64,000 nucleotides of DNA, from NCBI GenBank assembly GCA_964394145.1, contig CAYMVL010000025.1:96493-160492 (forward strand). The letters are read 5' to 3'. The number at the start of each line of letters is the position of its first letter. Positions within the stretch are counted from its first letter, which is position 1. Below, piece by piece: positions 9,181 through 35,798 of the stretch. Below the pieces are notes generated by a model. The model had not been told where the DNA came from and ran no database searches. It worked only from the letters and a program-made list of their open reading frames with translations. Source of the DNA: an uncultured Dehalococcoidales bacterium. Lineage in GTDB: Bacteria; Chloroflexota; Dehalococcoidia; GIF9; AB-539-J10. The position numbers were made by a program, and so were the translations under genes.

Positions 9181-9253
9181 CCGCCCCTGAAGGGACTCGA
9201 ACCCTTGCGCCTGGCTCCGGAGGCCAGTGCTCTATCCTCTGAGCTACAGGGGC
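9181..9253 (-). tRNA. tRNA-Arg (anticodon CCG)
   Basis: Reverse complement folds as gcccctg acceptor, anticodon stem ctggc/gccag with loop CTCCGGA, and T-loop GGTTCGAGT. Borders the island. Confidence 0.85.
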
Positions 9254-16878: not shown

Positions 16879-17561
16879 TTCCCACCACTAATTTGTTTAA
16901 CTGCAAGCAATTGGAATGCCAGTTTTGGGTAGTAGTAGGTAACCTTTTGGCTCAAATCAGAGAGCCTGCCCCATAAAAAGTGGGGGGCGTATTTTGTCTG
17001 ACCCCTATATCCCCTCAGTTTTTTCCAGCCGTTCATTCCATGGACTTCGAACCCTAGCTTCTGTAATTCTTTAGCGGTCCAGCCAGATTTATGCTCTTGT
17101 AATGGATTGTTGTCGTAACCATCCTGCCAGAGGTATCCATTTGGCGTTGTAATTATAACCTTCTTCCCAGCCCATGTTTGCATTTTATTGATTAGCCTAT
17201 ACCCTTCCTCTTTCGTTAAGTGTTCCAACAACTCAATAGCTATAACGACGTCAACGGATTTGGGCCTAAGCTGCATTCCTCTAGCATCCGCCTTAATGTA
17301 TTGATCATGAATACCCTTCCTTTTGCTTTCCTGCAGGTAAGGCTCGAATAGTTCAACCCCAACTGAAAAAGCAACATCACAATGTTGGATTGGAGAATCG
17401 CAACCACAGCCCAAATCTAAAACTGCATCGCAGTTCGAAAGTTCCCTTTTCAAATATTCAATCAAGCTAGGAAATAACCTTCTATAAAAAGGCTTCAAAG
17501 TCTTGATTAGCGAACGTCTCTTCTGTTTTGCTACGATGTCAAAGGATTGCGGACCTTTCAA
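16875..17561 (-). CDS. class I SAM-dependent methyltransferase
   Basis: Motif I VLDLGCGCDSP and a methyltransferase-type-11-like fold. TTG start with no clear SD, so the start is uncertain. Confidence 0.75.
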   Translation of the reverse strand: MKGPQSFDIVAKQKRRSLIKTLKPFYRRLFPSLIEYLKRELSNCDAVLDLGCGCDSPIQHCDVAFSVGVELFEPYLQESKRKGIHDQYIKADARGMQLRPKSVDVVIAIELLEHLTKEEGYRLINKMQTWAGKKVIITTPNGYLWQDGYDNNPLQEHKSGWTAKELQKLGFEVHGMNGWKKLRGYRGQTKYAPHFLWGRLSDLSQKVTYYYPKLAFQLLAVKQISGGK

Positions 17562-19099: not shown

Positions 19100-19103
19100 T
19101 TCG

Positions 19104-20483
19104 ATGAACCTCATCCTGTTAACCATTGACTGCCTCAGGGCAGACCACCTGAGCTGCTTGGGCTACTCCAAGAAAACAACGCCAAACCTGGACGACATTG
19201 CAGCCCACGGCACGCTCTTCAGTCAAGCCATAGCAGTGGGGCCAAATACCCCTGCTTCTTTCAAGGCTCTCTTCACCTCTAGTTACCCCTTCATGCATGG
19301 CACTAGGCTCTACGTCACAGAATCCACAACCACACTGGCGCAGGTCCTCAAAGACCATGACTACCGCACGGCGGCATACCACGCCAACCCATGGATATCA
19401 TCCTTTTATGGCTATGAGAAAGGCTTTGAAACCTTTGATGACGGCGTAGGGAAATGGAGCATTGAAAGCCACCTCAGCAAAGCGCAAACATCTGTCAAGC
19501 GAGTCATAGGCACGAGCGGCTCATTGTATAAGTTCCTACGCCAAAGATACACTGAGTTTCGGTTCGCTCGTTATATGAGCAAGCACGATTCTACTACGCT
19601 AAACAGGAAGGCGATGTCATGGCTCCGTGACAATAGCAACACTTTCTTCCTATGGATACACTACATGGATGTTCATGAGCCCTACCTGCCAGCCTCAAGA
19701 TTTGCCTCGCTATTAAGAGGCTATGGCATTGTTAGACTTAACGCCATAGCGCAGTACTCACCGGATAGGCTATCACCACGCGGCGTAAGGAAGCTCACTG
19801 AACTGTATGATGCAAACCTTCGCCATATTGACAGGCAAATAAGTTCTCTGCTAAGCAGACTAAGACAAAGTAACATCCTTGATAATACATTTGTAATTAT
19901 AACCGCAGACCACGGGCAGCAATTGCTCGAGCGAGGGCGCCATGGTCACGGCTATTATGTCTATGATGAATTAATCCACGTACCGCTGATTATCGCCGGA
20001 CCGGGAGTGAAAGCTCAGGTCATTACTGAGCAGGTAACTCTGTTGGACCTAGCGCCCACTATACTGGACATGCTCAAGATCGAGAAACCGAAGGCATTCT
20101 TGGGGAAAAGTCTGCTTCCATTGATGAATGGGAATAAGGTGAAAGGGGCGGGCTCACAGGCCATAAGCGAGGCAGACACAGCCAGCCCTCGGAAAGCAGC
20201 CACTGTGGACAAAAAGCCGCGACTTGATGCTAAACATCGGAGAATAGCACTCAGGGCGGGTAAGTGGAAGTACATTTATACCGAAGGCGGACAAGACGAG
20301 CTTTATTGCCTTGCAGAGGACCCGGGCGAGACGAAAAACATAATCGATGCTAAGCCACAAGTCGCGGCGGACCTGCGAGCCAAGATAATGGCCCACATTC
20401 AGTTCGAGGAGAAGAGCAACCGCAGTGAAGAGGGTCTCATAAAGGCGAGGATAGGAAAGCTAAGAAGCACTGGCAAGATATGA
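19104..20483 (+). CDS. sulfatase-family protein, tandem paralog of 17729-19099
   Basis: Same architecture, and the FGly position reads N-T-P-A-S. About 250 nt at the 5' end and a ~150 nt block near the 3' end are close to 90% identical to the upstream copy at nucleotide level. Confidence 0.8.
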   Translation: MNLILLTIDCLRADHLSCLGYSKKTTPNLDDIAAHGTLFSQAIAVGPNTPASFKALFTSSYPFMHGTRLYVTESTTTLAQVLKDHDYRTAAYHANPWISSFYGYEKGFETFDDGVGKWSIESHLSKAQTSVKRVIGTSGSLYKFLRQRYTEFRFARYMSKHDSTTLNRKAMSWLRDNSNTFFLWIHYMDVHEPYLPASRFASLLRGYGIVRLNAIAQYSPDRLSPRGVRKLTELYDANLRHIDRQISSLLSRLRQSNILDNTFVIITADHGQQLLERGRHGHGYYVYDELIHVPLIIAGPGVKAQVITEQVTLLDLAPTILDMLKIEKPKAFLGKSLLPLMNGNKVKGAGSQAISEADTASPRKAATVDKKPRLDAKHRRIALRAGKWKYIYTEGGQDELYCLAEDPGETKNIIDAKPQVAADLRAKIMAHIQFEEKSNRSEEGLIKARIGKLRSTGKI

Positions 20484-20519
20484 ACAGGTAAATTCAGATG
20501 CAGTAGACGGAGTTGACTA

Positions 20520-21434
20520 ATGAAGCTCAAGAGAGCATTGAAATACATAAGGGAGGGTGATTTCGCATCCCCCTGGGCCTGGTTCGCAGCAAAGACCTTT
20601 TGGCCACTACTTCACAGAGACCTGGGCACAGGAAAAGCTGTAAGAGTCATGGAACAGGATTGGGACTACTTGATTGTGCTGGATGCCTGTAGATATGACA
20701 CATTTAAAGAAGTAGTAGACGCCCAGGCGGGGTGCGTTATATCCGGGGGAACCCATACTCAGGCATGGCTGGAATGGAACTTTAGACAAGAGTATCGGGA
20801 TGTTATATACGTAGCGGGCAACCCTCATTTTGCCACCGCATACCTAAAGAAGACTCTGGGATTTAACCCCTTCTACATGGTGGAAGAGGTTTGGGACTAC
20901 GGATGGGATGACAGCCTCAAGACGGTGCCTCCGGAGCAGGTGACCAATGCAGCACTCAAGACGCTGAAAACCTACCCTGAAAAGAGGATGATAGTCCACT
21001 ATATGCAGCCTCACCATCCCTATATAGCCGACAGACAGCTTCTGGATGCAGATGACGGAACCTACCGCGGCTTCGAGGACACTGGTAGATGGCCGGAACA
21101 GATAACACCACTAAGACTGGCCAGAAGGGGCAAGGTTTCCATTCATAGAGTCAAGAAAGCGTACGAACAAAACCTGAGAATAGTAATGAAGGAAGTGGAA
21201 CGGCTTAAGGAATGGTTGCCTGGGAGAGTCATCTTGACGGCAGACCATGGAGACCTCTTTGGGGAACAGGGACTTTACGGGCACGGGACGAATTTGAGGG
21301 TAGACGCCCTGGTAAAAGTGCCCTGGGTGATTCTGAAAGACGAGAAGAGACGACGGGCATCTGGAGAACCCGGCGGTGAGAGGACGAGAGTTAGAGCCAA
21401 GATAGTGGACCTCAAACGATCAGGCAGGTTATAG
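20520..21434 (+). CDS. alkaline phosphatase superfamily (sulfatase-like core) protein
   Basis: LIVLDACRYD metal-site motif near the N-terminus and TADHGDLFGEQGLYGHG near the C-terminus. It is shorter, at 304 aa. Confidence 0.6.
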   Translation: MKLKRALKYIREGDFASPWAWFAAKTFWPLLHRDLGTGKAVRVMEQDWDYLIVLDACRYDTFKEVVDAQAGCVISGGTHTQAWLEWNFRQEYRDVIYVAGNPHFATAYLKKTLGFNPFYMVEEVWDYGWDDSLKTVPPEQVTNAALKTLKTYPEKRMIVHYMQPHHPYIADRQLLDADDGTYRGFEDTGRWPEQITPLRLARRGKVSIHRVKKAYEQNLRIVMKEVERLKEWLPGRVILTADHGDLFGEQGLYGHGTNLRVDALVKVPWVILKDEKRRRASGEPGGERTRVRAKIVDLKRSGRL

Positions 21435-22970
21435 AAACCTGCGCAAGATTTTCTTAATAGAAGATAAATTGAGGCCCGCCCTCTTCTCCATTGCCAGAAG
21501 CATGGTTATGTCCTCCTTGTCAAAGCTCCTGGTAAACAGGATAGCCAGGCCATACACGACATAGTAGAGGATGAACAGCAAGGGGAGCATCCACCAGACT
21601 ACAGCCACGAAGTCCTCAAGAATGAATTTGAACAGGAACACCAGGGCTAGAGAAACCAGGGTTGGCTTGAGCAGCTTCCTGCTCAGGGGCTGCGCCCCGC
21701 TCAGTGTGTAAAGCTTCCGGTAACTTAGCACGTTAATCGACGTTATGGCAGCTACGGAAGCAATAGCGGCTCCTTCTATGCCAAAGGGCGGAATCAAGGC
21801 AAGGTTCAGCCCGACATTTAGGACGGCACTTGCCAGGGTAACCCACATGATAAACCTGACCTGCCCCATGGCAATCAGGGTAGCCCCGTTAGGCCCCAGG
21901 AAATTGTTGACGATGTAACCTACGGACAGAATTTTGAGGGCTGTCGCTGCCGGAGCATAGCTTGTGCCAAATAGAAAAGCGAGCACGGTTTCGGGAAACA
22001 GGAAAATGATAAAGAACAGTGGTAATGTAGCCGAGCATAACCACTTGGTGAGAACGGAAAAATTCCTCCTCATTTCAGCCATTGAACCTTGGGCGTAGAG
22101 GCCCGACGCAACCGGCATATAAATGGATAGCATGGCCACCAGCGGGCTTGAAATGAACTGTGCCAGGGGATGGGCGGCGTTATAGAGCGCGACATCCACT
22201 GAGCTCCTCATTGCCCCCAGCATCAGGGTATCCGTCCAGGCAATAATCAGGTGAAGCACGGCTATCCCGAGCAAGGGAAGCGAGAATGAGAGAAGCTGCC
22301 CGGCTACGGGGTTTGCACTCAGCGCGGTGCGCAATCCCACGGGGACGGGGAGCCTTTTAGGGGCATAGAGTATGAGAGCCACACAGGATATGACCATGGC
22401 AGCCAGGTGCGCATAGAACACGTGATTAAAGGGCAAATGGAGCAAAATAACAGGCAGAAGAAACAGTAGCAGAAGCAAGTTCCTGAGAATATCCCGGAAG
22501 TAAACAGCAGGCTTCACGTCATCAAAGCCCCTGAATACGGAAACAAATACATATATCAGCGTGAAAAACGGTATGGCGAAGGCGAATATTTTCAGCGGAA
22601 CAGCAAGAGCAGCATCGTGAAAAACTCCGCTGGCAATGATATCCGAAGTAAAGAAGACGATGATGCCCAGGGCAATGCCTGCTATAAGAGCAAACTGAAT
22701 CGAGGCGGGAATCAGCTTCTGGATCCTTTGATTATCGTTTTGGCCCCGGGCATAGGCGATGCTTCTTGTGACCCCTTCCTGCAAGCCCAGCGCGGCAATT
22801 ACGGCACAGATGTTGAGTATAACGAAGGCCAGGGAGAAAACTCCGTAATCAGCTTCCGTCCCGTACCTGGCAATTATCAGCCTGGCGATAAAGGCAAGAA
22901 ACAAAGCTGCTAAGGAGCCCGTGAAAGCTATCCCTGTGCCTTTGGTGATTTTTACCAGCGAAGCGTCCAA
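21429..22970 (-). CDS. polysaccharide biosynthesis protein / oligosaccharide flippase (Wzx/MOP family)
   Basis: 12-14 TM helices with the MOP-flippase N-terminus LVKITKGTGIAFTGSLAALFLAFIARLIIARYGTEADYGVFSLAF. There is no in-frame ATG near the N-terminus. The likely start is TTG at 22970 (AGGGTG upstream) or GTG at 22979. The track ORF runs to 23090. Confidence 0.7.
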   Translation of the reverse strand: MDASLVKITKGTGIAFTGSLAALFLAFIARLIIARYGTEADYGVFSLAFVILNICAVIAALGLQEGVTRSIAYARGQNDNQRIQKLIPASIQFALIAGIALGIIVFFTSDIIASGVFHDAALAVPLKIFAFAIPFFTLIYVFVSVFRGFDDVKPAVYFRDILRNLLLLLFLLPVILLHLPFNHVFYAHLAAMVISCVALILYAPKRLPVPVGLRTALSANPVAGQLLSFSLPLLGIAVLHLIIAWTDTLMLGAMRSSVDVALYNAAHPLAQFISSPLVAMLSIYMPVASGLYAQGSMAEMRRNFSVLTKWLCSATLPLFFIIFLFPETVLAFLFGTSYAPAATALKILSVGYIVNNFLGPNGATLIAMGQVRFIMWVTLASAVLNVGLNLALIPPFGIEGAAIASVAAITSINVLSYRKLYTLSGAQPLSRKLLKPTLVSLALVFLFKFILEDFVAVVWWMLPLLFILYYVVYGLAILFTRSFDKEDITMLLAMEKRAGLNLSSIKKILRRFL

Positions 22971-23086
22971 TCTAGTCACCCTGGTTCGTTGTGTTATTTT
23001 GCTTCCGTTGAGATTATAGCTTTTCTCCTTTACGAAAGGAATGGGGTACGGGAGATATAATCTGCAGGGACCGCTGCTGTAAGTGA

Positions 23087-23863
23087 TCAACTGGTGGAGG
23101 ATAACAGGGCGTAAAATACGTCCTGCGGCTTATCTATCCGGTAGTCCATATTGACAGTTATCAGCAGGGCGTTCTCATGGTGATCGCCCTTGAGCCTTCC
23201 CCCGGCTGTCTGTTCTGGCAGAGTCTGCACTTCGGCTTCGCCAAAGGAGCAGAAGCCATGGTCGGAGATTATAATCAAGCTGTTGCTCTTGTCGCCGAGA
23301 AAACCGCTATCGAAAAGAAGTGCGCCAATCTTCTCGTCCAGTTTCCGGTACCATTCCAGGACGCAATCCTCACCCCAGTGGAAGTGCTGGATGCGGTCAA
23401 GCAGCGTGTAGACGGAGATGAGCAGATCGGGCCCTTCCGCCAGGAGTTCGGCTGTCTTCCCGGTGACCCTTTCCAGTTCTTGCTGCCACTCTTTATCGTT
23501 TGTGGGAAGACCAAAGCCCACAGGTTTGAAATCCACATTGAAGGAATAGGAGGGGACAACAAAGGGAACATTCAGCGCCTTTACCCTCTTGCCCTCCCTG
23601 TGGAGGATATCCCAGATGAAGTCCACTTTGATGTCTTCCCGCCTGACGATATTTCCATCAACCGCGTAACTGTGATGTCCATGCTCCTCTGGAGTCTTGC
23701 CAGAGAACATGCCACACCATATGGAGGCGGAGAATAGCTCCTGTTTGACGACAAGCTCGCGACATCTTCCTGTATCACAGAGCTTCCTGAAAGTGCTGAG
23801 CCTGTCCAGGTTTGGCCTAATGACCGTCCAGGTAGCAGCATCAATACCGAGAACGAGAATCAT
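23087..23863 (-). CDS. alkaline phosphatase family protein (type I phosphodiesterase/nucleotide pyrophosphatase-like)
   Basis: [11 protein letters not shown]-terminal metal site and IIISDHGF C-terminal site. Its ATG overlaps the cysN stop as ATGA. Confidence 0.7.
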
Positions 23864-25068
23864 CTGCCCGCCTCCAGGACTACCCCTGCTCCAATGTTCC
23901 TATCGTTCACCAGAACGAAGCGCCCAAGCTCAGGAATGTCGGAGAACTTTTCCACCACCAGGGGTTCGGTAGCGAAGAGTATTGTCGCTGCCTCATTTTC
24001 GCTTATCACTGCCGGGTATTTCTCCACAACTTCGCCCGTCTCAGAATTTATTCTCTCCCTTATTTCCTTTACCTCACAGCCTACCCTTGCCGTTCCACAC
24101 CTCAATTCAAGTTTGTCCCCCCTTCTCAAATTCCTTTCCAGCAATACAGCCTCGCCGATGAACTCCTTTACGGGTGTCGGCGGGGATGCCAGAAGACCGC
24201 AAACATCACCCCTGCTCACTTCGCCGTCCACTACAATTCCCACGCTGTCTCCCCGCTCTGCCTCAAGCAACTCGCCCGCGAAGTCCTTCATCCTTTTAAT
24301 TTCCGCCGCAACGCCCGAAGGTTGGAAGATAACCCTGTCCCCTTTCTTCAGCGTACCGGACTCTACCCTTCCTACAACGACCCTGTCGGAGTCAACCCCG
24401 TATGTATCCTGGACGACAAACCTGAGCGGCCTCTGTTCCTTGCTCACCACCACTCTGTCCAGAGTCTGAATCAAGGTGGGTCCTTCGTACCATCTCATCC
24501 GCCGGGACGGCTTGTAGATGTTATCCCCCTCCATAGCCGAGGCAGGCATAAAAGGTACATCGCGATAACCAAGCGAGCTCAGGAGCTGAGTTACCTCAGC
24601 CTTGATACGACCAAAGACCTCAGCGCTATAGTCCACAGCATCCATCTTGTTTACCAGGACGAAGAGTTGCTTTATGCCCAGCATGTGTATCAAGAAAGCA
24701 TGCCTTCCCGTCTGCTCCTGGATGCCTTCATCTGCGGCCACTACCAGAACAGCCACGTCGGCATGAGAAGCGCCGGTGAGCATATTCTTTATAAACTCCT
24801 TATGCCCCGGCACATCCGTGATGGAATAGAGGTTCTTCTGGCCCTTAAACATGACTCCCGTGGTATCTATGGTGCGCTCCTCTTTCAGCTCGTCGTCAAA
24901 CGAGTCAATAAAGTAGGCGAACTCAAATCTCTTCTTGTACTCCTCAGCCAGCTTCTGAATCTCCTCCACCCGCCCCTCGTTTATGCTCTCGGAGTCGTAA
25001 AGCAACCTCCCTATTAAGGTGGACTTGCCGTGGTCCACATGGCCTGTGATGACTACATTTACATTCAT
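23860..25068 (-). CDS. cysN: sulfate adenylyltransferase subunit 1 (GTPase, CysN/NodQ family), no APS-kinase domain
   Basis: [14 protein letters not shown] and NKMD G-motifs. It is 402 aa, so only the EF-Tu-like GTPase and beta-barrel domains are present. Confidence 0.85.
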
Positions 25069-25135
25069 AACTGTACCCTCCTAGAAATCAAAATTTAAAC
25101 GCTAAAATTCAAAAAGACAATGCGAAATTTAAAAG

Positions 25136-25507
25136 TCATCTCTTGCCTCTTAGCGTCAAAATGCTCGCAGCGATGACACTGGCAATCTCCGTCAACTCTT
25201 CTAGAAGCTTCTGACTTAGCTCCTTTTCAGATTTGCCAGAGTCTTGTAACAGCCCCAGCCAGAATTTTGTCTCATTGGCTGATTTTAAGGCGTGGGCAAA
25301 GAAATTAGTGTAGTCCTTATTCGAAACAGCACCTTGAGCCTCAGCCATATTTGCCCCGATGCTGGTAGCACTCCGTAGTAACTGGTCACCAATAATCCTT
25401 GATGTCTGGTCCTTCGGCAGTTGTTCGATAAACCGGATAACATCCAGAGCAAATTGATATACCCGCTGCCTAAACTCGTCTTTAAACTTCAATCTCGCAT
25501 TTTGCAT
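25136..25507 (-). CDS. four-helix-bundle protein (23S rRNA intervening-sequence protein / Avd-like family)
   Basis: QFALDVIRFIEQLPKDQTSRIIGDQLLRSATSIGANMAEAQGA...FAHALKSANETKFWL matches the TIGR02436/PF05635 family pattern. Flanked on both sides by AT-rich low-complexity sequence. Confidence 0.8.
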   Translation of the reverse strand: MQNARLKFKDEFRQRVYQFALDVIRFIEQLPKDQTSRIIGDQLLRSATSIGANMAEAQGAVSNKDYTNFFAHALKSANETKFWLGLLQDSGKSEKELSQKLLEELTEIASVIAASILTLRGKR

Positions 25508-25533
25508 TTTTGTTTTTAATTTTTGGATTTTGT

Positions 25534-26334
25534 TTACATATATCCTAACGCCCTCAGCTTCTGCATGGTGAAAGCCTTCTCCTTGTCCTGTGCTCTGCCG
25601 GACCTTTCCGCAATCCTGGTCGTCCTCAGCTCCTCGACTATCTCATCGATGGTGCTGGCGTTGGAGTCGATGGGGAAGGTGCATGGCTCACATCCCAGGC
25701 TCCTGTACCTTTTCCCATTTTTGGCAAAATACATGGGGTTCACGGGAAGTCCTTCCTCCCTGACGTATTCCCAGACATCCAGCTCCCGCCAGTGCAGAAT
25801 CGGATGCACTCTGGTGTGCGTCCTGTCATCAGTCGTAGCCTGGTACTGGTCCCACATCTCCAGCGGCTGGTTCTTATAGTCCCATCTGAAGTCCTCATCC
25901 CGCGGGGAGAAATACCTCTCCTTGGCTCGTATGCCATGCTCATCCCTCCTTATAGCCAGGATAAGGGCATCGAATCCATTCTTCTCCAGGCATTGCATCA
26001 GGGCCTCCGTTTTCAACCTGGTGCAGCATTCAAACTTTCCGTCCTTGGGGCCCACCCCCTGTGCAATCGCCTCTTCATTTCTGGCTACCACCAGGTCCAG
26101 GCCCCATTCTCTGGCGATCCTGTCCCTGAACTCATACATCTGCTTGAATTTATACGTAGTATCGATGTGAATTACAGGGAAGGGAATCTTGCCGAAAAAG
26201 GCCTTGCGACAAAGCGAGAGAGCGGCGGTGCTATCCTTGCCTGTGCTCCACAGGACTGCCGGTCTCTTGAACTCGGCATAGGCCTCCCTTATTATGTATA
26301 TGCTCCGATTTTCCAGCTCCTTCAGTTCTAGCAT
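25534..26334 (-). CDS. cysD: sulfate adenylyltransferase subunit 2 (CysD)
   Basis: PAPS-reductase-like fold (AVLWSTGKDSTAALSL, HIDTTYKF). The ATG at 26334 is preceded by an AGGAGGTG SD. The track start, a GTG at 26343, lies inside that SD. Confidence 0.85.
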   Translation of the reverse strand: MLELKELENRSIYIIREAYAEFKRPAVLWSTGKDSTAALSLCRKAFFGKIPFPVIHIDTTYKFKQMYEFRDRIAREWGLDLVVARNEEAIAQGVGPKDGKFECCTRLKTEALMQCLEKNGFDALILAIRRDEHGIRAKERYFSPRDEDFRWDYKNQPLEMWDQYQATTDDRTHTRVHPILHWRELDVWEYVREEGLPVNPMYFAKNGKRYRSLGCEPCTFPIDSNASTIDEIVEELRTTRIAERSGRAQDKEKAFTMQKLRALGYM

Positions 26335-26360
26335 GGTAATCACCTCCTGATAATTCGTTA

Positions 26361-27158
26361 TTAGAAGACAAATGCCTTAGCTAGGGTCGCTGCCCCTAGC
26401 AGGCATGTGACTCCCCCGATAAGCAATTTTAGCCTGTCAGAACCTAACCTTTTAACCGTCATAGCTGCAAATGGCGCTGCTATAACTGAGCCTATGGCAG
26501 CAGCAGCGACGAGCGTCCAGTATACATCGCCTTTGAGCAACAGATACGCCAAGAAACTCACAGCGCAAACAATAGTGACTGCAACCGTGGTGCTCCCAAC
26601 AGAGTTCTTTACCTCCCGTCCGCTAATTATCTGCCCGCCTGTCACCAGCGGAATGTACCCTCCTCCACTTATCCCCTTGTTAAAAGAGCTTAAGATTCCT
26701 ATCCCGATAAGCCTTTTCCACGAAAGCGCTCCTGCCCTGCTCCTGCGCATGAGGACCAGTATTCCCACCGCCAGGACCATCACCCCTATGTAAATTTCGA
26801 GAGCAAGCTCCGGGATATTCATAGCACAGACCACACCTGTAAGGCCGCCAATCACCCCACAGATGGCCAGAGTGAATACGACCTTAGCATCTTGGGACCT
26901 GGGCAGATAACCCAGTCCTCGCAACCTCTCTTTTATCAACCTGTCATCCCGTCTGAAATCCAGACTTATGTTCCTCACCCGGTGGTGTGCAACCCCTCCA
27001 ATTAAACCACCCGCAAACTGGCTTAACAATACCGCCGGGATAACCTGCAAAGGGGCGAATCCCATGATAAGAAGCACGGGCGCCAGAGCAGTCCCATAAC
27101 CCAGTCCCACGGAAATGCTCATATACTGGAACAAAAGAGCAAACAAGGCTACAGCCAT
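26361..27158 (-). CDS. TauE/SafE family sulfite/sulfonate exporter-like membrane protein (DUF81)
   Basis: 265 aa with 8 TM helices and two repeated halves. Glycine-rich TM motifs typical of DUF81. Confidence 0.75.
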   Translation of the reverse strand: MAVALFALLFQYMSISVGLGYGTALAPVLLIMGFAPLQVIPAVLLSQFAGGLIGGVAHHRVRNISLDFRRDDRLIKERLRGLGYLPRSQDAKVVFTLAICGVIGGLTGVVCAMNIPELALEIYIGVMVLAVGILVLMRRSRAGALSWKRLIGIGILSSFNKGISGGGYIPLVTGGQIISGREVKNSVGSTTVAVTIVCAVSFLAYLLLKGDVYWTLVAAAAIGSVIAAPFAAMTVKRLGSDRLKLLIGGVTCLLGAATLAKAFVF

Positions 27159-27679: not shown

Positions 27680-27926
27680 AGGCTGCCCAAGCTGGGCCTA
27701 AGCAATCCCGGGGCAGCCATGAGATTGCCGCGCTTCGCTCGCAATGACATGCCATTTTGTCGTTGCGAGGCTGGCCAGACCAGCCGAAGCAATCTGAGGG
27801 GCCAGCGATGGGATTGCCGCGCTTCGCTCGCAATGACATCCCGCTTTGTCGTTGCGAGGCAGGCAAAGCCAGCCGAAGCAATCCCGGGCCAGTGATGAGA
27901 TTGCCACGCTTCGCTCGCAATGACAT
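27680..27926. repeat. tandem array (~2.8 copies) of an 87-89 bp unit, each containing a 12-bp hairpin
   Basis: Units at 27719-27807, 27808-27894 and 27895-~27926 (truncated), plus a partial unit at 27680-27718. The unit begins atgRgattgccgcgcttcgctcgcaatgacat. The inverted repeat ctcgcaatgaca / tgtcgttgcgag allows one G-U pair. It lies between the rfbD stop and the RHH gene start. Confidence 0.8.
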
Positions 27927-27963: not shown

Positions 27964-28833
27964 TCAGGCTATGTGCCCTCTGGCAACCAGGTAATGCTTG
28001 AGCGCTTCCTGCCAGGGCCTCATGTCATCCAGGCCCAGGAGCCGCAGGTGGTAATTGTCCAGCACGGAGTAGCCGGGCCTTATGGCTTTCTGGGGATACC
28101 GGTCTGAGCTTATCGGAATTACCGGGGTCCTCAAGCCCGCCAGCTTCAGTATCTCTCCGGCGAATTCGTACCAGGAACAGGAGCCCCTGTTGGTGATATG
28201 GAATATGCCATAGTATTCGGTCTGGAGAATCTGGGCTATCTTCCCAGCCAGGTCGCCGGTATAGGTGGGGGAGAATACCTGATCATTGACCACCTTGATT
28301 TCGTCGCGCTCTCCGGCCAGCCTGAGCATGGTTTCGATGAAGTTGCCGCCTTTGCCGCTGGAGCCGGCCAGGCCGAAAAGCCCCGAAGCTCTGATGATGA
28401 AGTGCCTGAGGCAAAGATGGCGGACAAGGTCTTCCCCGGCCAGCTTGGACTTGCCGTAAACGCTGAGGGGGACAGGCGTCTCGAATTCGGTGTAGGGGGT
28501 GCTTCGTGGCTCAGCATTACCGCCGAAGACGTAGTCGGTGCTGAGATGTATCAGCTTAGCGCCGAGTTCCTGCGCGACCACCGCGACATTGCGGGCTCCC
28601 AGAGCGTTCACCTGGAAGGCTTTCTCCTTTTCGTCTTCGCAGTCGTCAACGCGAACACAGGCGGCGGTATTGATGATGACATCAGGATTGCGCTTGAGCA
28701 TGGCTCCCCTGACGGAAGCCATGTCGGCAATTTCGATATCGGTATGGGTAAGGGGAATGACATCGAAGTCATGCAGGGCCCGGCACAGATCAGTGCCCAG
28801 TTGTCCGTTAGCGCCTGTTACTGCTACTTTCAC
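27964..28833 (-). CDS. rfbD: dTDP-4-dehydrorhamnose reductase
   Basis: KVAVTGANGQLG Rossmann motif and RmlD topology. The GTG start at 28833 overlaps the rfbB TGA stop as GTGA. The longest ORF, to 28893, would overlap rfbB by 64 nt. Confidence 0.85.
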   Translation of the reverse strand: MKVAVTGANGQLGTDLCRALHDFDVIPLTHTDIEIADMASVRGAMLKRNPDVIINTAACVRVDDCEDEKEKAFQVNALGARNVAVVAQELGAKLIHLSTDYVFGGNAEPRSTPYTEFETPVPLSVYGKSKLAGEDLVRHLCLRHFIIRASGLFGLAGSSGKGGNFIETMLRLAGERDEIKVVNDQVFSPTYTGDLAGKIAQILQTEYYGIFHITNRGSCSWYEFAGEILKLAGLRTPVIPISSDRYPQKAIRPGYSVLDNYHLRLLGLDDMRPWQEALKHYLVARGHIA

Positions 28834-29834
28834 CTTTTGAGGTACATTTCCTCGTAGTATCTTGAGTATTCGCCGCTCTTGATTGACTGCCACCAGGACC
28901 GGTTGTTCAGATACCAGTCAACAGTAGCACCCAGGGCTCCTTCAAAGGTGTAAGCCGGCTTCCAGCCCAGCTCCGCAGTTATCTTGGTGCAATCGAGGGC
29001 GTAGCGGCGGTCGTGGGCGGGACGGTCGGAGACGAATTGTATCAGGCTCTGCGGTTTTCCCAGTAACTCCAGCAACCTGTGGATAAGCTCCAGGTTGCTC
29101 TTCTCATTGCCGCCGCCGATATTGTATATCTCTCCCGGCCGGCCTTTCTGAAGCACGGCATTGAGAGCCCGGCAGTGGTCGTTTACAAAGATCCAGTCCC
29201 TGACATTGAGGCCATCGCCGTACACGGGGACCGGCTTATCCTCCAGAGCGTTGGTGATAGCCAGCGGGATTAGCTTCTCGGGAAACTGGTATGGTCCTAA
29301 GTTGTTAGTACAGCGGGTGATGATTACCGGGACATGGTGGGTCCTGAAGTAGGCAAGAGATAAGAGGTCGGCAGCAGCCTTGCTGGCTGAATACGGGCTG
29401 CTGGGTGACAGAAGCGATTGCTCATCGAAGCGGCCAATATCAACAGAGCCGTAGACTTCATCAGTGGAGACCTGGACAAATCTCCCGATCCCGTGCTTTT
29501 TTGCCCCTTCAAGGAGCACCTGAGTCCCCTTAACATTGGTCTCAATGAATGGAGAGGCGTCCATGATGCTGCGGTCAACGTGGCTCTCGGCGGCACAATT
29601 CACAACGAAATCAAAGCCCTCACCGAGCAACCTATCTACCAGCTTCCTGTCAGCTATATCACCTTTGATGAAACGGTAGCCGGGCCGGCCTTCCATATCC
29701 TTTAAGTTCTCCATGTTGCCGGCATAGGTGAGCTTGTCCAGATTGCTTATCTCCCAGTCGGCATGTTCTTGCCGGATATGGCGAATGAAATTAGAGCCGA
29801 TGAAGCCGGCGCCCCCGGTGACCAGTAGCTTCAT
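28830..29834 (-). CDS. rfbB: dTDP-glucose 4,6-dehydratase
   Basis: MKLLVTGGAGFIGSNF... and a YSASKAA catalytic motif. The ATG at 29834 is preceded by GGAGGAGG and overlaps the rfbC stop as ATGA. Confidence 0.9.
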   Translation of the reverse strand: MKLLVTGGAGFIGSNFIRHIRQEHADWEISNLDKLTYAGNMENLKDMEGRPGYRFIKGDIADRKLVDRLLGEGFDFVVNCAAESHVDRSIMDASPFIETNVKGTQVLLEGAKKHGIGRFVQVSTDEVYGSVDIGRFDEQSLLSPSSPYSASKAAADLLSLAYFRTHHVPVIITRCTNNLGPYQFPEKLIPLAITNALEDKPVPVYGDGLNVRDWIFVNDHCRALNAVLQKGRPGEIYNIGGGNEKSNLELIHRLLELLGKPQSLIQFVSDRPAHDRRYALDCTKITAELGWKPAYTFEGALGATVDWYLNNRSWWQSIKSGEYSRYYEEMYLKR

Positions 29835-30400
29835 TTCGCCTCCTCCATGTAGTGAAACCGGATATCGGCATCCCTCAGAGCGGGCCATTTTTCATCTTTT
29901 GCGGATAAAATAGGGTCTTTAACAGGCCACTCGATATTCAGCTCTGCATCATTCCAGATAATACCGGCTTCAGATTTGAGTGAGTAAACATCGGTGGTCT
30001 TATATATCACTTCGGCAATGTCCGAAAGAACACAGAAACCATGGGCCAGTCCTGCCGGGATATAGAGCATATTCCTGTTTTCCTCCGACAGGACTACACC
30101 CACCCATTTGCCCCGCGCAGGCGAGCCCTCTCTTATGTCAACGGCGACATCAAATATCTCGCCCCTTACCACCCTGACCAGCTTCCCCTGCGCGAAAGGC
30201 GGCTTCTGATAATGCAGCCCCCTGAGAACGCCTTTGCTGGAACGGGAGTGGTTCTCCTGGACAAAAGCCGCCTTTATGCCACCAGCAACGAAGTCCGGCA
30301 TCTTGTATGTTTCCATAAAGAAACCCCTGCCGTCTTCAAATACCTCTGGCTCTATCAGGACCAGTCCTGGAATATCTAGCGTCTTGAAAGCGAATGGCAC
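29831..30400 (-). CDS. rfbC: dTDP-4-dehydrorhamnose 3,5-epimerase
   Basis: RmlC cupin (GLVLIEPEVFEDGRGFF, RGLHYQ). GTG start at 30400 with an AAGGGAGAGG SD. Confidence 0.9.
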   Translation of the reverse strand: MPFAFKTLDIPGLVLIEPEVFEDGRGFFMETYKMPDFVAGGIKAAFVQENHSRSSKGVLRGLHYQKPPFAQGKLVRVVRGEIFDVAVDIREGSPARGKWVGVVLSEENRNMLYIPAGLAHGFCVLSDIAEVIYKTTDVYSLKSEAGIIWNDAELNIEWPVKDPILSAKDEKWPALRDADIRFHYMEEAK

Positions 30401-30420
30401 GTAAAACCTCTCCCTTGCTG

Positions 30421-30530
30421 GTTCAATAGTTCAATGGTTTCATGGTTCAATAGTTCAATAGTTCAATGGTTCAATGGTTTCATGGTTCAATCGTTGTTGG
30501 TTTTTTGGTTGCTGGTTTGCTGGTTCTTAA
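30421..30530. repeat. 8-nt periodic simple repeat (GTTCAATR) x9, decaying into GTTGYTG-like units
   Basis: gttcaatagttcaatggtttcatggttcaatagttcaatagttcaatggttcaatggtttcatggttcaatcgttgttgg... fills the rfbC to four-helix-bundle-gene spacer. The degenerate part encodes the C-terminal KPATKKPTTIEP tail of the four-helix-bundle protein. Confidence 0.8.
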
Positions 30531-30878
30531 GTAGCGAATGAAACCCTGTAACATCCTGGCAACTTTGCTGCATTGCTCCGTTAATGAGTCGAATTGATTA
30601 CCACTAATGTAATGCAAATCCAAAGCGGCGTAAAGTTGGGATTGAGCCTCTGCTGTAGAACGTAGAGAATAGCCCAGGAAAGTTGTAAATTCTCTGTTCG
30701 ATTGACACATAAAACCTTCGGCAATATTGGACATAACAGATATAACAGCCCGCTGAATTTGATCTCTCAACTCTCGGTCATTTTTGAATGGTGCTTTATT
30801 AGTGGCTTCATAAACCATCTTAACCAGTAACCTTGCCTCTCTCCATGCCTCTATATCCTCAAATCGCTCAATCTTCAT
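30480..30878 (-). CDS. four-helix-bundle protein (23S rRNA IVS protein / Avd-like family), second copy
   Basis: MKIERFEDIEAWREARLLVKMVYEATNKAPFKNDRELRDQIQRAVISVMSNIAEGF...STAEAQSQLYAALDLHYI, the canonical TIGR02436 pattern. Inserted between rfbA and rfbC. Confidence 0.8.
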   Translation of the reverse strand: MKIERFEDIEAWREARLLVKMVYEATNKAPFKNDRELRDQIQRAVISVMSNIAEGFMCQSNREFTTFLGYSLRSTAEAQSQLYAALDLHYISGNQFDSLTEQCSKVARMLQGFIRYLRTSKPATKKPTTIEP

Positions 30879-30887
30879 TAACTCTCA

Positions 30888-30935
30888 AACTATCTAACCA
30901 TCAACTATCTAACCATGTAACTATCTAACCACCCA
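30888..30935. repeat. about 3 tandem copies of a 15-16 nt unit ACTATCTAACCAYSW
   Basis: aactatctaaccatca / actatctaaccatgta / actatctaaccaccca fills the entire rfbA-stop to four-helix-bundle-start spacer. Confidence 0.7.
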
Positions 30936-30943
30936 ACCATCCC

Positions 30944-32035
30944 CTACAGCTCCACTCTGGCATCGTCGCCGACGAAAAGCCTCAGCGCCTTCAATGTCTG
31001 CCTGCCTTGTGTTACCTCGGTGCCCCGGCCTATAACGCTATCAGCCAGGCGCTCGATTCCAGAGATACGGCATCTCTCCAGTATCACCGAGTGCCCGATG
31101 GACGACCCCTCTATCACAGTACCCGCTCCAACGCTCGTGAAAGGGCCGATGAATGAATTCTTAACCTTACAGTCCTGATCTATGGAGACCGGCCCCCTGA
31201 TGGTGCTGTTTTCTATGCTTGTCCCTTCTCTGATTTCGACTCTGCCGGCCACCTGGCTGCCGGCATCAACCTCACCCCTCAAGTCGCGCTTTACAAATTC
31301 ATCAAGTACAACGCGGTTAGCTTCCAGCAGGTCGTCTTTCTTGCCCGTATCCAGCCACCAGCCTGTGAGGATATGGCTTCGGACCTTCTTGCCGGAATCA
31401 ATGAGCTGCTGGATGGTATCGGTTATTTCAAGTTCTCCCCGCCAGGAGGGTTCTATCCTCTCTATTGCACGGTGCACTTCTCCTGTGAAAAGATAAACGC
31501 CGGGCACTGCCAGATTTGTCTTCGGCTCGCGTGGTTTTTCCACAATGCTGGTTATCTCGCCTCTCTCGTTTAGTTCGGCAACGCCGAACAGACGCGGGTC
31601 TGGGACCTCTTTAAGCAGGACAAGCGCATCAGCCCTGTTTGTCGTAAACTCCTGAACAAAACTCCTGACGCCGCCCTGAATAAGATTGTCGCCAAGAAAC
31701 ATCAAGAAGGCAGAATCGCCCAGGAAGTCCCGGGCTGTCTTCACAGCATGGGCAAGCCCCAGAGGTTCGGATTGTAAAATGTAAGTAATTTGGGCATTCC
31801 ACCTTGAACCATCGCCCACAGCTTCCTTTATCCCCTGCCCCGTTTCCGGTGAAATAATAATTCCGATATCGTCTATCCCGGCTTCAGCGACCTGCTCCAA
31901 AACATAATACAGTATGGGCTTATTAGCCACCGCAATAAGCTGTTTCGCCAGAGTGTTGGTTAGGGGCCTGAGCCTGGTGCCCTTGCCCCCGCAGAGGATA
32001 ATAGCTTTCATGCCGGACAGGCGCTGCTCGTTCAT
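30944..32035 (-). CDS. rfbA: glucose-1-phosphate thymidylyltransferase, long form with C-terminal left-handed beta-helix domain
   Basis: N-terminal [11 protein letters not shown] nucleotidyltransferase motif. It is 363 aa with a C-terminal hexapeptide-repeat region ([20 protein letters not shown]...). An alternative ATG at 32011 gives MKAIILCGG. Confidence 0.85.
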
Positions 32036-32122: not shown

Positions 32123-34504
32123 TCACGACCCGGCTGGCCTGACATACTCAAAGATCTTTATCTGCGGTGAACTGTGACCTGCCAGCGTCGCCGTGGCAGG
32201 AGATTCATAGACTATCCTGTAGCTGTGCAACTCCTCCAGAGGCACAGCGCTGGCGAAGGGATCGGCGCTCACTATGCGCTGCTCTCCCGGCTCCTGGCTC
32301 GACATATACGCCTCTGCCTCGCCATAGCTGGAAAATGACTCTACCTTGGTGATTATCTTGTAGTCTGTCCCCTCCTGGCTGACCACCCGGTAAGAGATAA
32401 CAAGTATCTGCCCGGGCAGCTGAGCCTTAGCATCAAAGTTGTAAAGCCTGACCACCATAGAATTATAATAGGCAGGATAGAACAGGGTTATCTGCTCCAG
32501 TTTGCCGTCTCCGCTTTCCTGATAATAGGTGTCGTAGAACTCGTCCTGGCTCCCTCCCACCCACTGCGGCATGGCATAGAACTTGGAGCTGGCCATAGCA
32601 TGGTCAATTATTATGTATTTTGAGCCGACCTTGTCCATCATTTCCCCGGCTGAATCCTCGTCCTGAGCAAGGAAGAAGTGCGCCACATTCTGGACACCCT
32701 GCTGAAACGGGTTGGAAACGGGTATACGGTGGGCGATGCGGCTTATCCAGTGACCGTAGTCCCACCAGGAGAGTACGCTATAGGCGGTATCGGGGTACTG
32801 AAACGGTGTCTCATATAGCTGATAATAGGCATCAGGGTCGTCAAAGGGCTCAGGGCTATTAGACTTGAGCCACTCAAGCGAGCTATGCCACGCCTCGGTG
32901 ATGAGAAGTGGATTCCGGGCAATTGCCTCAGCTTTGCTGAAATTGGGGAAGAAGATAAGAAAGAAAAGGGCTACACCGGTCAGGATTACCCTGACCCGAA
33001 GAATCTTGCGCTGCCGCAGCGCCCTCACGTCCACCCGCCCCTCAACTCTCCTTTTCTGCTTTGCCTTCCTTGTTTGTACGTAATCTTTGACCAGATCAAC
33101 AGGCTCAGCCAGTAACTGTTTCAGCCCGGCGAAATCCAGGACCCTCCAGGCGAAATATCCTGCCAGCAAAGCCGCATTTACGGCGAAATAATAGCTGAAG
33201 CGGCGCTGCCCCAGAACGGCTACCAGCATTATCAGGCTCCATACCAGGAACAGCGTTTTATCTGGGCTCTCTTCCTTGATGCTGCGGTAAATCAGCCAGC
33301 CAAACGATATGAAGCAGATAAAGAAAGAGGTGGTGAAGTTGACCCAGGCTATCCTGAGGGAGAATGTGCCGTACGGCAACAGTAAAGGCTGCATCTCCAG
33401 TATGGTCAGGGCAGCACCGGCAGGGCTGAAGATGCTAAATCTAGCGAGCATTGAGTGGAGCAAGGCTGGATTAGCGGCATGAAAGATAGCAAGACCGATG
33501 CCGGCAAGCGCGGCCAGCGCTACAGGATAGAAGAAAGGCCTGACGCCTTGCCGGGTCATCACTCTGGAAATGCCGCTCAAGGCTACGGGCGCCAGTATGG
33601 CAACCAGGAAGGAGGCGGTATAGATAGAACTGAGCTGGTGTGCGGATAGATAAGGGAGATTGATTATAAGGGAGACAAGGAAAACCAGCACTCCAATCAT
33701 ACACAGGTAATCGGTTGATTTACCCCGCACGTGGTCTATGATGAACTGAATTAGCAGCCAGGCAGATATGATGAAGATAAGCAGCAGACCACCCACCCAG
33801 GTGAGAAGATAGATGCCCAGGAAGATGCCGGCAACTAAGGCATAAATGAGGGGCTTGATTACTTTGTTGCGCTCCCCTGTCCTCCCCCCTGAATGCAGAG
33901 GAAAAAGATGGTTGAAGGATATCTCTCTTTCTTTGAATTTCTTTACCGCCAGTATCAGGAATAGTATAGTCACAGCAGAGAATAAGCTCTCGGCCACATG
34001 GTGGTCCGCAAAGCCAAGCAGCGAGCGATTCAGAAATTCACCCGGCAGTACGGCCACCAGGCCCGCAGCGACTACACCCACCCAGCGATTGAATAGCTGC
34101 CTGCCTATGAAATAGACCGGAACAATCGTTACGGCAGCGAGAATGGGTGGAAGATAAGCTCCCGCTAAATCTATGCTGTGCTGCGACGGCGAACCCAGGT
34201 CAAGCAGCCAGGCGAAGCCGCCTACAAGCCAGTCAAAGAAGGGGGGCCAGGGCACCATGGTGCCACTGGGATAGTAGGTATAGGGGTCAAAAGCGATGCG
34301 GTGGGGAAAGTGCTGCAACAGGTTATCCACCAGCCTCATGTGGTACCAGGCATCGGTGCCTTGAAACCACACCGAGCCATGGCCAAAAACGTTGTCATAG
34401 GGCAGGGCTATACGAATATATAGAGAAATCCCGGCTATGATGAGCAGGGCTATGGTAACGATAAGGGATGGCCGGAGGCGACTTCTATTCACCTGAGTCG
34501 ACAT
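32123..34504 (-). CDS. aglB: oligosaccharyltransferase, STT3/AglB/PglB family (GT-C fold)
   Basis: 793 aa with about 13 N-terminal TM helices and a C-terminal periplasmic domain carrying the diagnostic WWDYGHWI motif. A downstream MMDKVGSKYIIID segment resembles the DK/MI motif. First gene of the 13-kb minus-strand cluster. Confidence 0.85.
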   Translation of the reverse strand: MSTQVNRSRLRPSLIVTIALLIIAGISLYIRIALPYDNVFGHGSVWFQGTDAWYHMRLVDNLLQHFPHRIAFDPYTYYPSGTMVPWPPFFDWLVGGFAWLLDLGSPSQHSIDLAGAYLPPILAAVTIVPVYFIGRQLFNRWVGVVAAGLVAVLPGEFLNRSLLGFADHHVAESLFSAVTILFLILAVKKFKEREISFNHLFPLHSGGRTGERNKVIKPLIYALVAGIFLGIYLLTWVGGLLLIFIISAWLLIQFIIDHVRGKSTDYLCMIGVLVFLVSLIINLPYLSAHQLSSIYTASFLVAILAPVALSGISRVMTRQGVRPFFYPVALAALAGIGLAIFHAANPALLHSMLARFSIFSPAGAALTILEMQPLLLPYGTFSLRIAWVNFTTSFFICFISFGWLIYRSIKEESPDKTLFLVWSLIMLVAVLGQRRFSYYFAVNAALLAGYFAWRVLDFAGLKQLLAEPVDLVKDYVQTRKAKQKRRVEGRVDVRALRQRKILRVRVILTGVALFFLIFFPNFSKAEAIARNPLLITEAWHSSLEWLKSNSPEPFDDPDAYYQLYETPFQYPDTAYSVLSWWDYGHWISRIAHRIPVSNPFQQGVQNVAHFFLAQDEDSAGEMMDKVGSKYIIIDHAMASSKFYAMPQWVGGSQDEFYDTYYQESGDGKLEQITLFYPAYYNSMVVRLYNFDAKAQLPGQILVISYRVVSQEGTDYKIITKVESFSSYGEAEAYMSSQEPGEQRIVSADPFASAVPLEELHSYRIVYESPATATLAGHSSPQIKIFEYVRPAGS

Positions 34505-35474: not shown

Positions 35475-35559
35475 GGAGAGGTGACCGAGTGGTTTATGGT
35501 GCCGCTCCCGAAAAGCGGTGGGCAGCAATGCCTCGTGGGTTCGAATCCCACCCTCTCCG
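35475..35559 (+). tRNA. tRNA-Ser (anticodon CGA), long variable arm
   Basis: ggagagg acceptor, 3-bp D stem, anticodon stem ccgct/agcgg with loop CCCGAAA (C at position 33 is unusual), long variable arm, T-loop GGTTCGAAT. 85 nt. Confidence 0.75.
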
Positions 35560-35709
35560 CAGGGCAAGCGACCTGTTGAATCGATAAAGACTGACAGATG
35601 GGCAACAGGCAGCTACACAGCCGTGAGCTGTTTAGTAAAGGAACTAAGGTTTAATTGCAGAATATGCTTGAGTACCCGGCAGTTATTGGCTAATATATCC
35701 CCGAAACAT

Positions 35710-35798
<89 letters not shown>

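Follow-up and report, generated by a model that had tools for sequence, protein, structure and literature searches.

A predicted AglB-type oligosaccharyltransferase in a glycan gene island of a Dehalococcoidia bacterium

Introduction

Can a bacterium of the Chloroflexota possess an oligosaccharyltransferase (OST) of the archaeal type, and if so, where did it come from and what would it do? The question is raised by an aglB-like gene at positions 32123..34504 on the minus strand of a 64,000-nt stretch of contig CAYMVL010000025.1, here called the window, which is catalogued under an uncultured Dehalococcoidales bacterium. The textbook case of bacterial N-glycosylation is that of PglB in Campylobacter and a few related proteobacteria, and the Dehalococcoidia are an environmentally dominant class with subsurface and organohalide-respiring members. 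An initial annotation, made from the letters of the window, had described the gene as an OST in a bacterial host, with a WWDYG signature, about 13 transmembrane helices, acidic loop residues and a DK-type region closer to STT3 and AglB than to PglB. The results presented here make it likely that the gene encodes a catalytically competent single-subunit OST of the AglB-L type and belongs to a working N-glycosylation system acquired from archaea. Literature searches of open-access papers returned incidental matches only, and no paper linking an OST to the Dehalococcoidia or Chloroflexota was found.

Family assignment and catalytic residues

The open reading frame (ORF) starts with ATG and encodes 793 amino acids when translated from the window; its coordinates and the two strings quoted in the initial annotation, VLSWWDYGHWIS and MMDKVGSKYIIID, were exact. 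The protein matched the Pfam STT3 N-terminal membrane domain over residues 30-404 (E 1.3e-32), a Pfam AglB_core-like domain over residues 538-638 (E 1.6e-27) and the NCBIfam model TIGR04154 with 705.5 bits against a cut-off of 450 (E 1e-211; protein residues 18-789, model positions 2-742 of 831). A phmmer search of the PDB returned AglB-L of Archaeoglobus fulgidus (AfAglB; 3WAJ, 5GMY, 7E9S) at E 6e-81 across residues 20-684, in a collinear alignment with few gaps that covers AfAglB 17-664. Eukaryotic STT3 appeared at about 1e-6 only, and PglB gave no sequence match at E<1. Together the Pfam, TIGR04154 and AfAglB scores lie far beyond what a chance pentapeptide would produce, and the product of 32123..34504 is accordingly predicted from its sequence to be a full-length OST of the archaeal AglB-L type, with the GT-C fold of the STT3/AglB/PglB superfamily (CAZy GT66).

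The two-part architecture of the superfamily, an N-terminal polytopic domain followed by a C-terminal globular domain, is present. The membrane domain comprises residues 1-530 (32915..34504, minus strand) and is delimited by the Pfam STT3 match, the alignment to AfAglB 17-486 and the helices of an AlphaFold2 (AF2) model. A crude hydropathy scan resolves 11-12 transmembrane helices; the number of about 13 given in the initial annotation comes from homology and is consistent with the gap-poor alignment to AfAglB, which has 13, and with the AF2 helices. The loop between the twelfth and thirteenth helices (residues 465-500) is rich in Lys and Arg and has low model confidence. The extracytoplasmic domain, residues 531-793 (32126..32914, minus strand), combines the AglB core with a beta-rich peripheral unit, as judged from Pfam, TIGR04154 and the AF2 strands at 657-787.

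Residue roles were taken from AfAglB as defined in PMC8342417 and transferred by pairwise alignment. Conservation was scored in an alignment of the window protein with 117 full-length homologues of 53-64% identity (n=118), and in a second set of 37 bacterial and 43 archaeal sequences from the tree described below, counted where the residue is present. All positions named in this section lie on the minus strand. In external loop 1, the first DXD-equivalent G49-T50-D51 (34352..34360) aligns with G-N-D of AfAglB, D51 matching the metal ligand D47; it is Asp in 35/35 bacterial and 42/42 archaeal ungapped sequences and at least 90% conserved in the 118-sequence alignment. The second DXD, D167-H168-H169 in external loop 2 (33998..34006), corresponds to AfAglB D161-H162-H163, of which the Asp and the second His bind metal (PMC8342417). 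The TIXE motif of external loop 5, which in OSTs pairs with the sequon backbone and supplies the Glu that completes the catalytic site (PMC8342417), reads T367-I-L-E370 (33395..33406; AfAglB T357-I-A-E360). Arg435 of the R434-R435 pair (33200..33205) is equivalent to AfAglB R426 of the lipid-phosphate site and is found in 80/80 sequences, and the preceding position is Arg in 28/37 bacteria versus Asn in 37/43 archaea, as Asn425 in AfAglB. WWDYG, part of the Ser/Thr +2 pocket, occupies residues 580-584 (32753..32767; AfAglB 550-554) within VLSWWDYGHWIS (residues 577-588, nt 32741-32776), and Q601 is equivalent to AfAglB Q571.

D167, H169, E370, R435, W580, W581, D582 and K641 are invariant among the 118 sequences. 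In the second set, neither the 37 bacterial nor the 43 archaeal sequences depart from D51, D167, H169, E370, R435 and WWDY wherever the position is occupied, and 33/37 bacterial sequences have Lys at position 641. Such conservation of catalytic positions across the bacterial clade indicates purifying selection. The catalytic signature claimed in the initial annotation is therefore no fortuitous WWDYG, and the acidic loop residues it had reported are found in D51, D167 and E370, aligned with AfAglB D47, D161 and E360.

The DK-type region needed correction. The DK motif of AfAglB-L is a variant form, E613-<4 residues>-K618-xxx-M622, and is carried by a kinked helix (PMC3703281). Its counterpart in the window protein is D634-H-A-M-A-S-S-K641-F-Y-A-M645 (32570..32605), a variant (insertion) Lys-type region on the kinked model helix 639-648, in which K641 and M645 are equivalent to K618 and M622, the second and third signature residues. 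This match points to a Lys-type (DK-family) Ser/Thr pocket, as the initial annotation had proposed, but the MMDK residues that it named are not the motif, which lies 16 residues downstream of them. They lie in MMDKVGSKYIIID (residues 622-634, 32603..32641), 38 residues past WWDYG, which by the alignment and the AF2 model forms the end of helix 616-626 and strand 630-634 and precedes the motif. D624-K625 was rejected as the DK motif since it aligns with AfAglB 'AEKLNVKYVVSD' and falls on the helix end and beta strand; only the last residue of MMDKVGSKYIIID, D634, is in the motif region.

Predicted structure

The AF2 model built from the 118-sequence alignment had a predicted local distance difference test (pLDDT) score of 83.4 and a predicted template modelling (TM) score of 0.85, and was weak only in residues 1-7, the external loop 5 and the 469-489 linker. 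With only 17 aligned sequences the pLDDT was 45.6, and that model was not used. In a Foldseek search of the PDB with the retained model, AfAglB (7e9s) was the top match (E 8e-35, TM score 0.70, about 26% identity), human and yeast STT3 came second (E 2e-20 and weaker, TM score about 0.6) and PglB of Campylobacter lari third (E 2e-13, TM score 0.49), with other GT-C enzymes lower; the individual PglB structures rank 17th-19th, at TM scores of 0.47-0.49. The order AglB, STT3, PglB agrees with the sequence searches and with the affinity that the initial annotation had proposed.

A PglB-type enzyme of the Campylobacter or Desulfovibrio lineage that only resembles AglB would fit a bacterial host, a single-subunit OST and the adjacent Wzx-type flippase and glycosyltransferase genes, all as in pgl loci. 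The Campylobacter system indeed shares with the window a bacterial single-subunit OST accompanied by glycosyltransferases, sugar-nucleotide genes and a flippase, and the same GT-C fold and catalytic logic. PglB belongs, however, to another branch of the superfamily and has the MI motif, MxxIxxx(I/V/W), where the window protein holds the Lys of a DK-type motif. With the failure of PglB to match by sequence at E<1, the TM score of 0.49 versus 0.70 for AglB and a tree that nests the protein inside halobacteriotal AglBs, this explanation is hardly credible and is regarded as refuted.

The closest characterised protein is thus AfAglB-L (O29867; PDB 3WAJ, 3WAK, 5GMY, 7E9S), which the window protein resembles in full-length collinearity, metal ligands, TIXE, the R426 and Q571 equivalents, WWDYG and the insertion-type Lys DK motif, and from which it differs in length (793 versus 868 aa). 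AfAglB also uses archaeal dolichol phosphate, whereas the host here is a bacterium, so that its lipid carrier is unlikely to be archaeal dolichol phosphate. TIGR04154, whose cut-off is exceeded, describes the archaeosortase A system-associated OSTs of Methanosarcinales, Methanocellales, anaerobic methanotrophic archaea (ANME) and haloarchaea; the family expects a euryarchaeal host, which is a taxonomic expectation and not a sequence criterion, and the host here is a member of the Dehalococcoidia. No archaeosortase A or PGF-CTERM was found among the scanned ORFs of the window, nor in the ten neighbour-gene clusters most widely shared within 10 kb of the bacterial loci.

Host organism

Bacterial-type genes flank the glycan island described below. 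To its left are NrdR and subunits of pyruvate:ferredoxin oxidoreductase, and to its right DprA, TopA, EF-P, ClpP, trigger factor, AspS and AlaS; an AroK-AroB fusion and NrdJ are also on the window. TopA scored 808 bits with the bacterial model versus 261 with the archaeal one, AlaS 893 versus 385, and AspS 724 bits with aspS_bact. The best named AspS homologue, 85% identical, is from a Dehalococcoidia metagenome-assembled genome (MAG), and others at 76-77% are labelled Chloroflexi or Chloroflexota. Judged by these genes, the host is a Dehalococcoidia (Chloroflexota) bacterium, which bears out the bacterial origin assumed in the initial annotation.

An archaeal gene on a chimeric contig, or an archaeal contig mistaken for a bacterial one, was weighed as an assembly or binning artefact, since an archaeal family model accepts the protein, those of its relatives with known structures come from archaea and the island exceeds its flanks in GC content at third codon positions (GC3). 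Against this, bacterial-only genes stand on both sides of the island on one contig. A 34.7-kb JGI metagenome contig and an independent Logan assembly both encode the identical AglB protein between the same neighbours; the recurring junctions are Rid, Asp racemase and patatin on one side and RmlA on the other, and their presence in two independent assemblies argues against a chimera. Members of the same clade occur in 36 other Chloroflexota species genomes and on a closed 3.6-Mb Phycisphaerales chromosome, some beside bacterial RecO, and the rml and cys genes of the island share 66-85% identity with their counterparts next to aglB elsewhere in the Dehalococcoidia. An artefact is very improbable and effectively refuted.

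Relatives and phylogeny

At E<=1e-10 a protein database search gave 1408 homologues, the best 120 of which are all full length and 52-67% identical. The named ones among these 120 are Dehalococcoidia MAG proteins, and NCBI and JGI label them automatically as archaeosortase-A-associated OSTs. With a Dehalococcoidaceae homologue as query, another 120 clusters with Chloroflexota or Dehalococcoidales labels were among the matches listed; full-length homologues from Chloroflexota account for more than 240 listed clusters (90% identity) altogether. The rarity of bacterial N-linked OSTs outside a few proteobacterial lineages, asserted in the initial annotation, thus holds for the literature but not for nature.

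A search of GTDB, with one genome per species, confirmed 515 relatives, of which the best 80 were characterised. They comprise 36 Chloroflexota, mostly Dehalococcoidia, one Phycisphaerales and 43 Halobacteriota archaea from Methanocellales, ANME-1/Methanophagales, Syntrophoarchaeum, Methanothrix, Methanosarcinaceae, ANME-2 and GoM-Arc1. The nearest archaeal relatives, 31-42% identical, belong to Methanocellales, ANME-1, Syntrophoarchaeum, Methanothrix and Methanolobus. Neighbourhoods of the bacterial aglB genes vary by locus and are rich in nucleoside diphosphate-sugar and glycosyltransferase genes, and several carry bacterial RecO or rhomboid. Conserved synteny with the island of the window was considered and rejected; only functional classes recur between loci.

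In a neighbour-joining (NJ) tree of 80 sequences and 682 columns, rooted on AfAglB-L and bootstrapped with 100 replicates, all 37 bacterial sequences form one clade (support 81), sister to the archaeal sequence of locus L050 (79). Bacteria and L050 are nested in a group with ANME-1 and Syntrophoarchaeum (76) and with Methanocellales (80), outside which Methanothrix, Methanosarcinaceae and ANME-2 branch. The phylogeny called for in the initial annotation thus places the bacterial clade among halobacteriotal AglBs. L050 as a misbinned Chloroflexota contig was rejected: it carries ArlH, ArlI and ArlJ (L050:6746-18677), which match Syntrophoarchaeum and Methanolobus loci, and its archaellum genes and neighbours match Syntrophoarchaeum, Methanolobus and ANME-2c, not bacteria.

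The simplest reading of the tree is that such archaea passed the gene to the Chloroflexota, where it diversified and from where it moved on to the Planctomycetota at least once. The reverse direction, from Chloroflexota into the AglB-L of methanogens and ANME, or ancestral vertical inheritance, would suit a bacterial clade that is large and deep, with identities down to 36-40%, and a nesting supported by only 76-81%. Under the AfAglB-L root, however, Methanosarcinaceae, Methanothrix, ANME-2, Methanocellales and ANME-1 branch successively outside the bacteria, the TIGR04154 model was built on Euryarchaeota, and an independent transfer in the same direction has been reported, archaellum clusters having been inferred to pass from Methanotecta to Chloroflexota (bioRxiv 10.1101/2025.02.02.636118). 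An origin other than archaea-to-bacteria transfer is considered improbable. The archaellum case is alike in its inferred donor and recipient groups and in placing a working archaeal surface system in monoderm Chloroflexota. It differs in that the Chloroflexota archaellum is described as O-glycosylated, not N-glycosylated, with AglB unmentioned (bioRxiv 10.1101/2025.02.02.636118), and in that no archaellum genes were found near aglB in any bacterial locus examined. In archaeal loci L050, L058, L060, L061, L064 and L077, which include those of a tar-biofilm Halobacteriota MAG, Syntrophoarchaeum and Methanolobus, aglB lies within about 6-10 kb of arlH, arlI and arlJ.

Two variations within the bacterial family were observed. 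The Dehalococcoidia MAG STD1_5 has two divergent aglB paralogues side by side (L034:6794-12355), a situation reminiscent of Archaeoglobus and Methanosarcina, which have multiple AglB paralogues. In 21 Chloroflexota AglB clusters a DnaJ J-domain is inserted at about residues 480-600, in the loop between the twelfth and thirteenth transmembrane helices, which is predicted to be cytoplasmic from the 13-helix topology (P0242, P0246, P0249-P0251, P0264, P0271, P0278, P0283, P0285, P0286, P0293, P0310, P0322, P0325, P0328, P0334, P0341, P0343, P0355 and P0357); one further cluster, P0074, has the J-domain at its N-terminus. The HPD motif is kept in some of these J-domains and not in others. The 43 archaeal and 37 GTDB bacterial AglB sequences checked lack the domain, and the window protein has only its Lys/Arg-rich linker there (residues about 465-500, nt about 33005-33112). 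The J-domain suggests coupling to DnaK, and to our knowledge no J-domain built into an OST has been described.

The glycan island

The gene is located in an island of about 25 kb (window 9182-35798) between a tRNA-Arg(CCG) gene (9182..9253, minus strand) and two tRNA-Ser genes (CGA and GGA; 35475..35798, plus strand), in which the recognisable genes all concern glycan assembly. The island is headed by aglB, with rmlA immediately downstream in the same orientation. The genes for dTDP-L-rhamnose synthesis, rmlA-rmlD (27964..32035, minus strand), all exceed their NCBIfam cut-offs: rmlA, of the long form (30944-32035), rmlC (29831-30400), rmlB (28830-29888) and rmlD (27964-28893). They are followed on the same strand by a sulfate-handling block (23087..27158) of a TauE-family exporter (26361-27158), CysD (25534-26343), a CysN-like GTPase (23860-25068) and an alkaline-phosphatase-superfamily phosphodiesterase (23087-23863), and by a MOP/Wzx-type flippase for lipid-linked glycans (21429..23090, minus strand). 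The GTPase scored 384 bits with EF-1-alpha models and 291 bits with CysN, below both cut-offs, and is taken from its sequence and place beside CysD to be a putative atypical CysN-like partner without an APS (adenosine 5'-phosphosulfate)-kinase domain.

Three sulfatase-family genes (17729..21434, plus strand) come next. The first two (17729-20483) are a tandem duplicate, in which segments of about 100-300 nt, spaced by about 1380 nt, are 75-84% identical at the DNA level, and the third is a shorter sulfatase-like gene (20520-21434). A methyltransferase (16875-17561) and a family 2 glycosyltransferase (GT2; 15916-16878) are on the minus strand. The left end of the island holds, on the plus strand, a 617-aa fusion starting at 9485, of a polyprenyl-phosphate hexosyltransferase-like GT2 (residues 6-217) and a Cps2T-like GT4 rhamnosyltransferase (residues 235-613), a further GT4 gene (11405-12688) and a DUF2206 polytopic membrane protein of 771 aa (12711..15026; PF09971, E 9.5e-44). 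The best PDB match of the fusion's GT2 domain was the dolichyl phosphate (Dol-P)-mannose synthase of Pyrococcus furiosus (1.2e-21), followed by ArnC and GtrB-type enzymes. The DUF2206 protein had no NCBIfam match and no solved-structure relative by sequence, and may act at the outer face as a glycosyltransferase or polymerase with a polyprenyl-phosphate sugar as donor.

GC3 was 0.59-0.69 in the 11 island genes tested (AglB 0.636) and 0.46-0.52 in 8/9 flanking housekeeping genes, so that the island is compositionally distinct. The tRNA-bracketed, GC3-rich stretch points to a surface-glycan island that is exchanged horizontally. A search around it for att-like direct repeats of the flanking tRNAs found none.

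Repeats were seen at two places in the island. The TauE-family gene and rmlD are separated by 800 nt, and this gap contains, at window 27696-27926, an 85-90-nt repeat in three copies. The copies have internal palindromes (…GCCGCGCTTCGCTCGCAATGACAT…TTGTCGTTGCGAGG…) and resemble repetitive extragenic palindromic (REP) or miniature inverted-repeat transposable elements (MITE) in appearance. An 8-nt tandem repeat GTTCAATG/GTTCAATA of about 11 units and a related short repeat TAACTATCTAACCA (window 30413-30503 and 30879-30939) bracket a small gene between rmlC and rmlA, the counterpart of which in another locus (L002) is called a 23S-rRNA-intervening-sequence-protein family member. The 8-nt repeat could be a slipped-strand or phase-variation tract in the glycan operon.

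Discussion

On the evidence of sequence and predicted structure, the window protein clearly belongs to a known family, found here in a domain of life where it was not expected. If it belongs to a working N-glycosylation system of archaeal origin, as we think likely, the cytoplasmic enzymes whose genes are in the island would make dTDP-rhamnose and activated sulfate. Glycosyltransferases would then build a rhamnose-containing, possibly sulfated or methylated oligosaccharide on polyprenyl monophosphate, the first step probably being performed by the Dol-P-hexose-synthase-like GT2 domain and extension by the rhamnosyltransferase fused to it. Among the scanned ORFs of the island none showed a phosphoglycosyltransferase domain, which makes a monophosphate linkage like that of Euryarchaeota probable. 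The pgl pathway begins with a phosphoglycosyltransferase and yields an undecaprenyl-diphosphate-linked glycan. The scanned ORFs differ from that pathway in having a Dol-P-hexose-synthase-like GT2 and no detected domain of that kind. The MOP flippase would carry the lipid-linked glycan to the outer face, where, by analogy with the chemistry of AfAglB, D51, D167 and H169 would bind the divalent metal and R435 would position the lipid phosphate. The Asn-X-Ser/Thr sequon would be clamped between TIXE (E370) and the Ser/Thr pocket of WWD and K641, and the glycan moved in one piece to the amide of the Asn in a secreted or envelope protein. The aglB family itself would have entered the Chloroflexota horizontally from Halobacteriota related to ANME-1, Syntrophoarchaeum and Methanocellales and then diversified, the copy in this genome now forming part of a compositionally distinct, tRNA-flanked surface-glycan island.

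The closest functional analogy is the Agl system of Haloferax volcanii (AglJ/G/I/E, AglB, AglD/R/S; Agl5-Agl15), where a polyprenyl-monophosphate glycan is assembled by GT2 and GT4 enzymes, flipped and transferred by AglB, an order of steps that would apply here. In its low-salt cluster, dTDP-rhamnose genes are found together with a flippase and with sulfation of a lipid-linked hexose (PMC3892788), and the cluster resembles the island in gene content, by gene classes and not by orthology. The systems differ in that the sulfated, rhamnose-containing low-salt glycan of H. volcanii is transferred independently of AglB (PMC3892788).

The enzyme could also have been repurposed, to release free glycan or to transfer glycan to water, a lipid, a cell-wall polymer or an O-linked site. 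AfAglB and other OSTs do hydrolyse lipid-linked oligosaccharide (PMC8342417), the bacterial clade has lost the equivalent of AfAglB His81 and gained Arg434 at the donor site, and the archaellum of Chloroflexota is reported to be O-glycosylated, not N-glycosylated (bioRxiv 10.1101/2025.02.02.636118). What makes repurposing unlikely is that TIXE, WWD, K641 and M645, the elements that read the sequon, are conserved across the bacterial clade together with the metal site, although neither a hydrolase nor transfer to a non-peptide acceptor would require them.

Several observations weigh against a working N-glycosylation system acquired from archaea. The bacterial AglB clade is known from genes and predicted structure alone, and the matches listed include no cultured named species, the names being MAG-derived. 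The phylogeny is an NJ tree of 80 sequences with a single outgroup and moderate support of 76-81. Of the three DK signature residues two are present: where AfAglB has E613 the window protein has Ala636, and the nearest acid, D634, aligns with AfAglB D611. The phosphate-site residue His81 of AfAglB, replaced here by Pro85, is His in 23/43 archaea and in none of the bacteria, so that donor binding must differ somewhat. The GT2 domain of the fusion could instead make a polyprenyl-phosphate-sugar donor for the DUF2206 protein. Neither APS kinase nor a sulfotransferase was recognised, and this makes sulfation uncertain. The only nearby surface protein, a PKD lipoprotein (37780-38991), has a single sequon, and no acceptor was identified.

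The substitutions specific to the bacterial clade, at the His81 position, at Arg434 (AfAglB Asn425) and in N-P-F-Q, where Phe is often Gly in bacteria, cluster at the donor-lipid site. They may represent candidate adaptations to bacterial polyprenyl phosphate. The change from His to other residues and from Asn to Arg at the lipid-phosphate site would then provide candidate determinants of carrier specificity, useful for glyco-engineering, which seeks OSTs with a plain N-X-S/T sequon that are active in bacterial membranes.

A wider picture is put forward tentatively and with somewhat less than even confidence. In it, Chloroflexota, including Dehalococcoidia, and at least one lineage of Planctomycetota would run complete archaeal-style N-glycosylation, in which a polyprenyl-monophosphate-linked glycan is transferred by AglB to Asn-X-Ser/Thr of envelope proteins. 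The system would have been captured from neighbours resembling ANME-1, Syntrophoarchaeum or Methanocellales and would contribute to the archaeon-like proteinaceous envelope of these bacteria, and the J-domain of one subclade would hint at coupling to DnaK-assisted protein export. The biological significance of the gene itself appears real. If the reading is true, Bacteria would gain their first AglB-type N-glycosylation system and, besides PglB, a second and independent origin of N-glycosylation. The reading predicts N-glycopeptides on envelope proteins and an AglB that uses bacterial polyprenyl phosphate, and it would mean that an archaeal cell-surface pathway has been transplanted into bacteria, alongside the reported archaellum.

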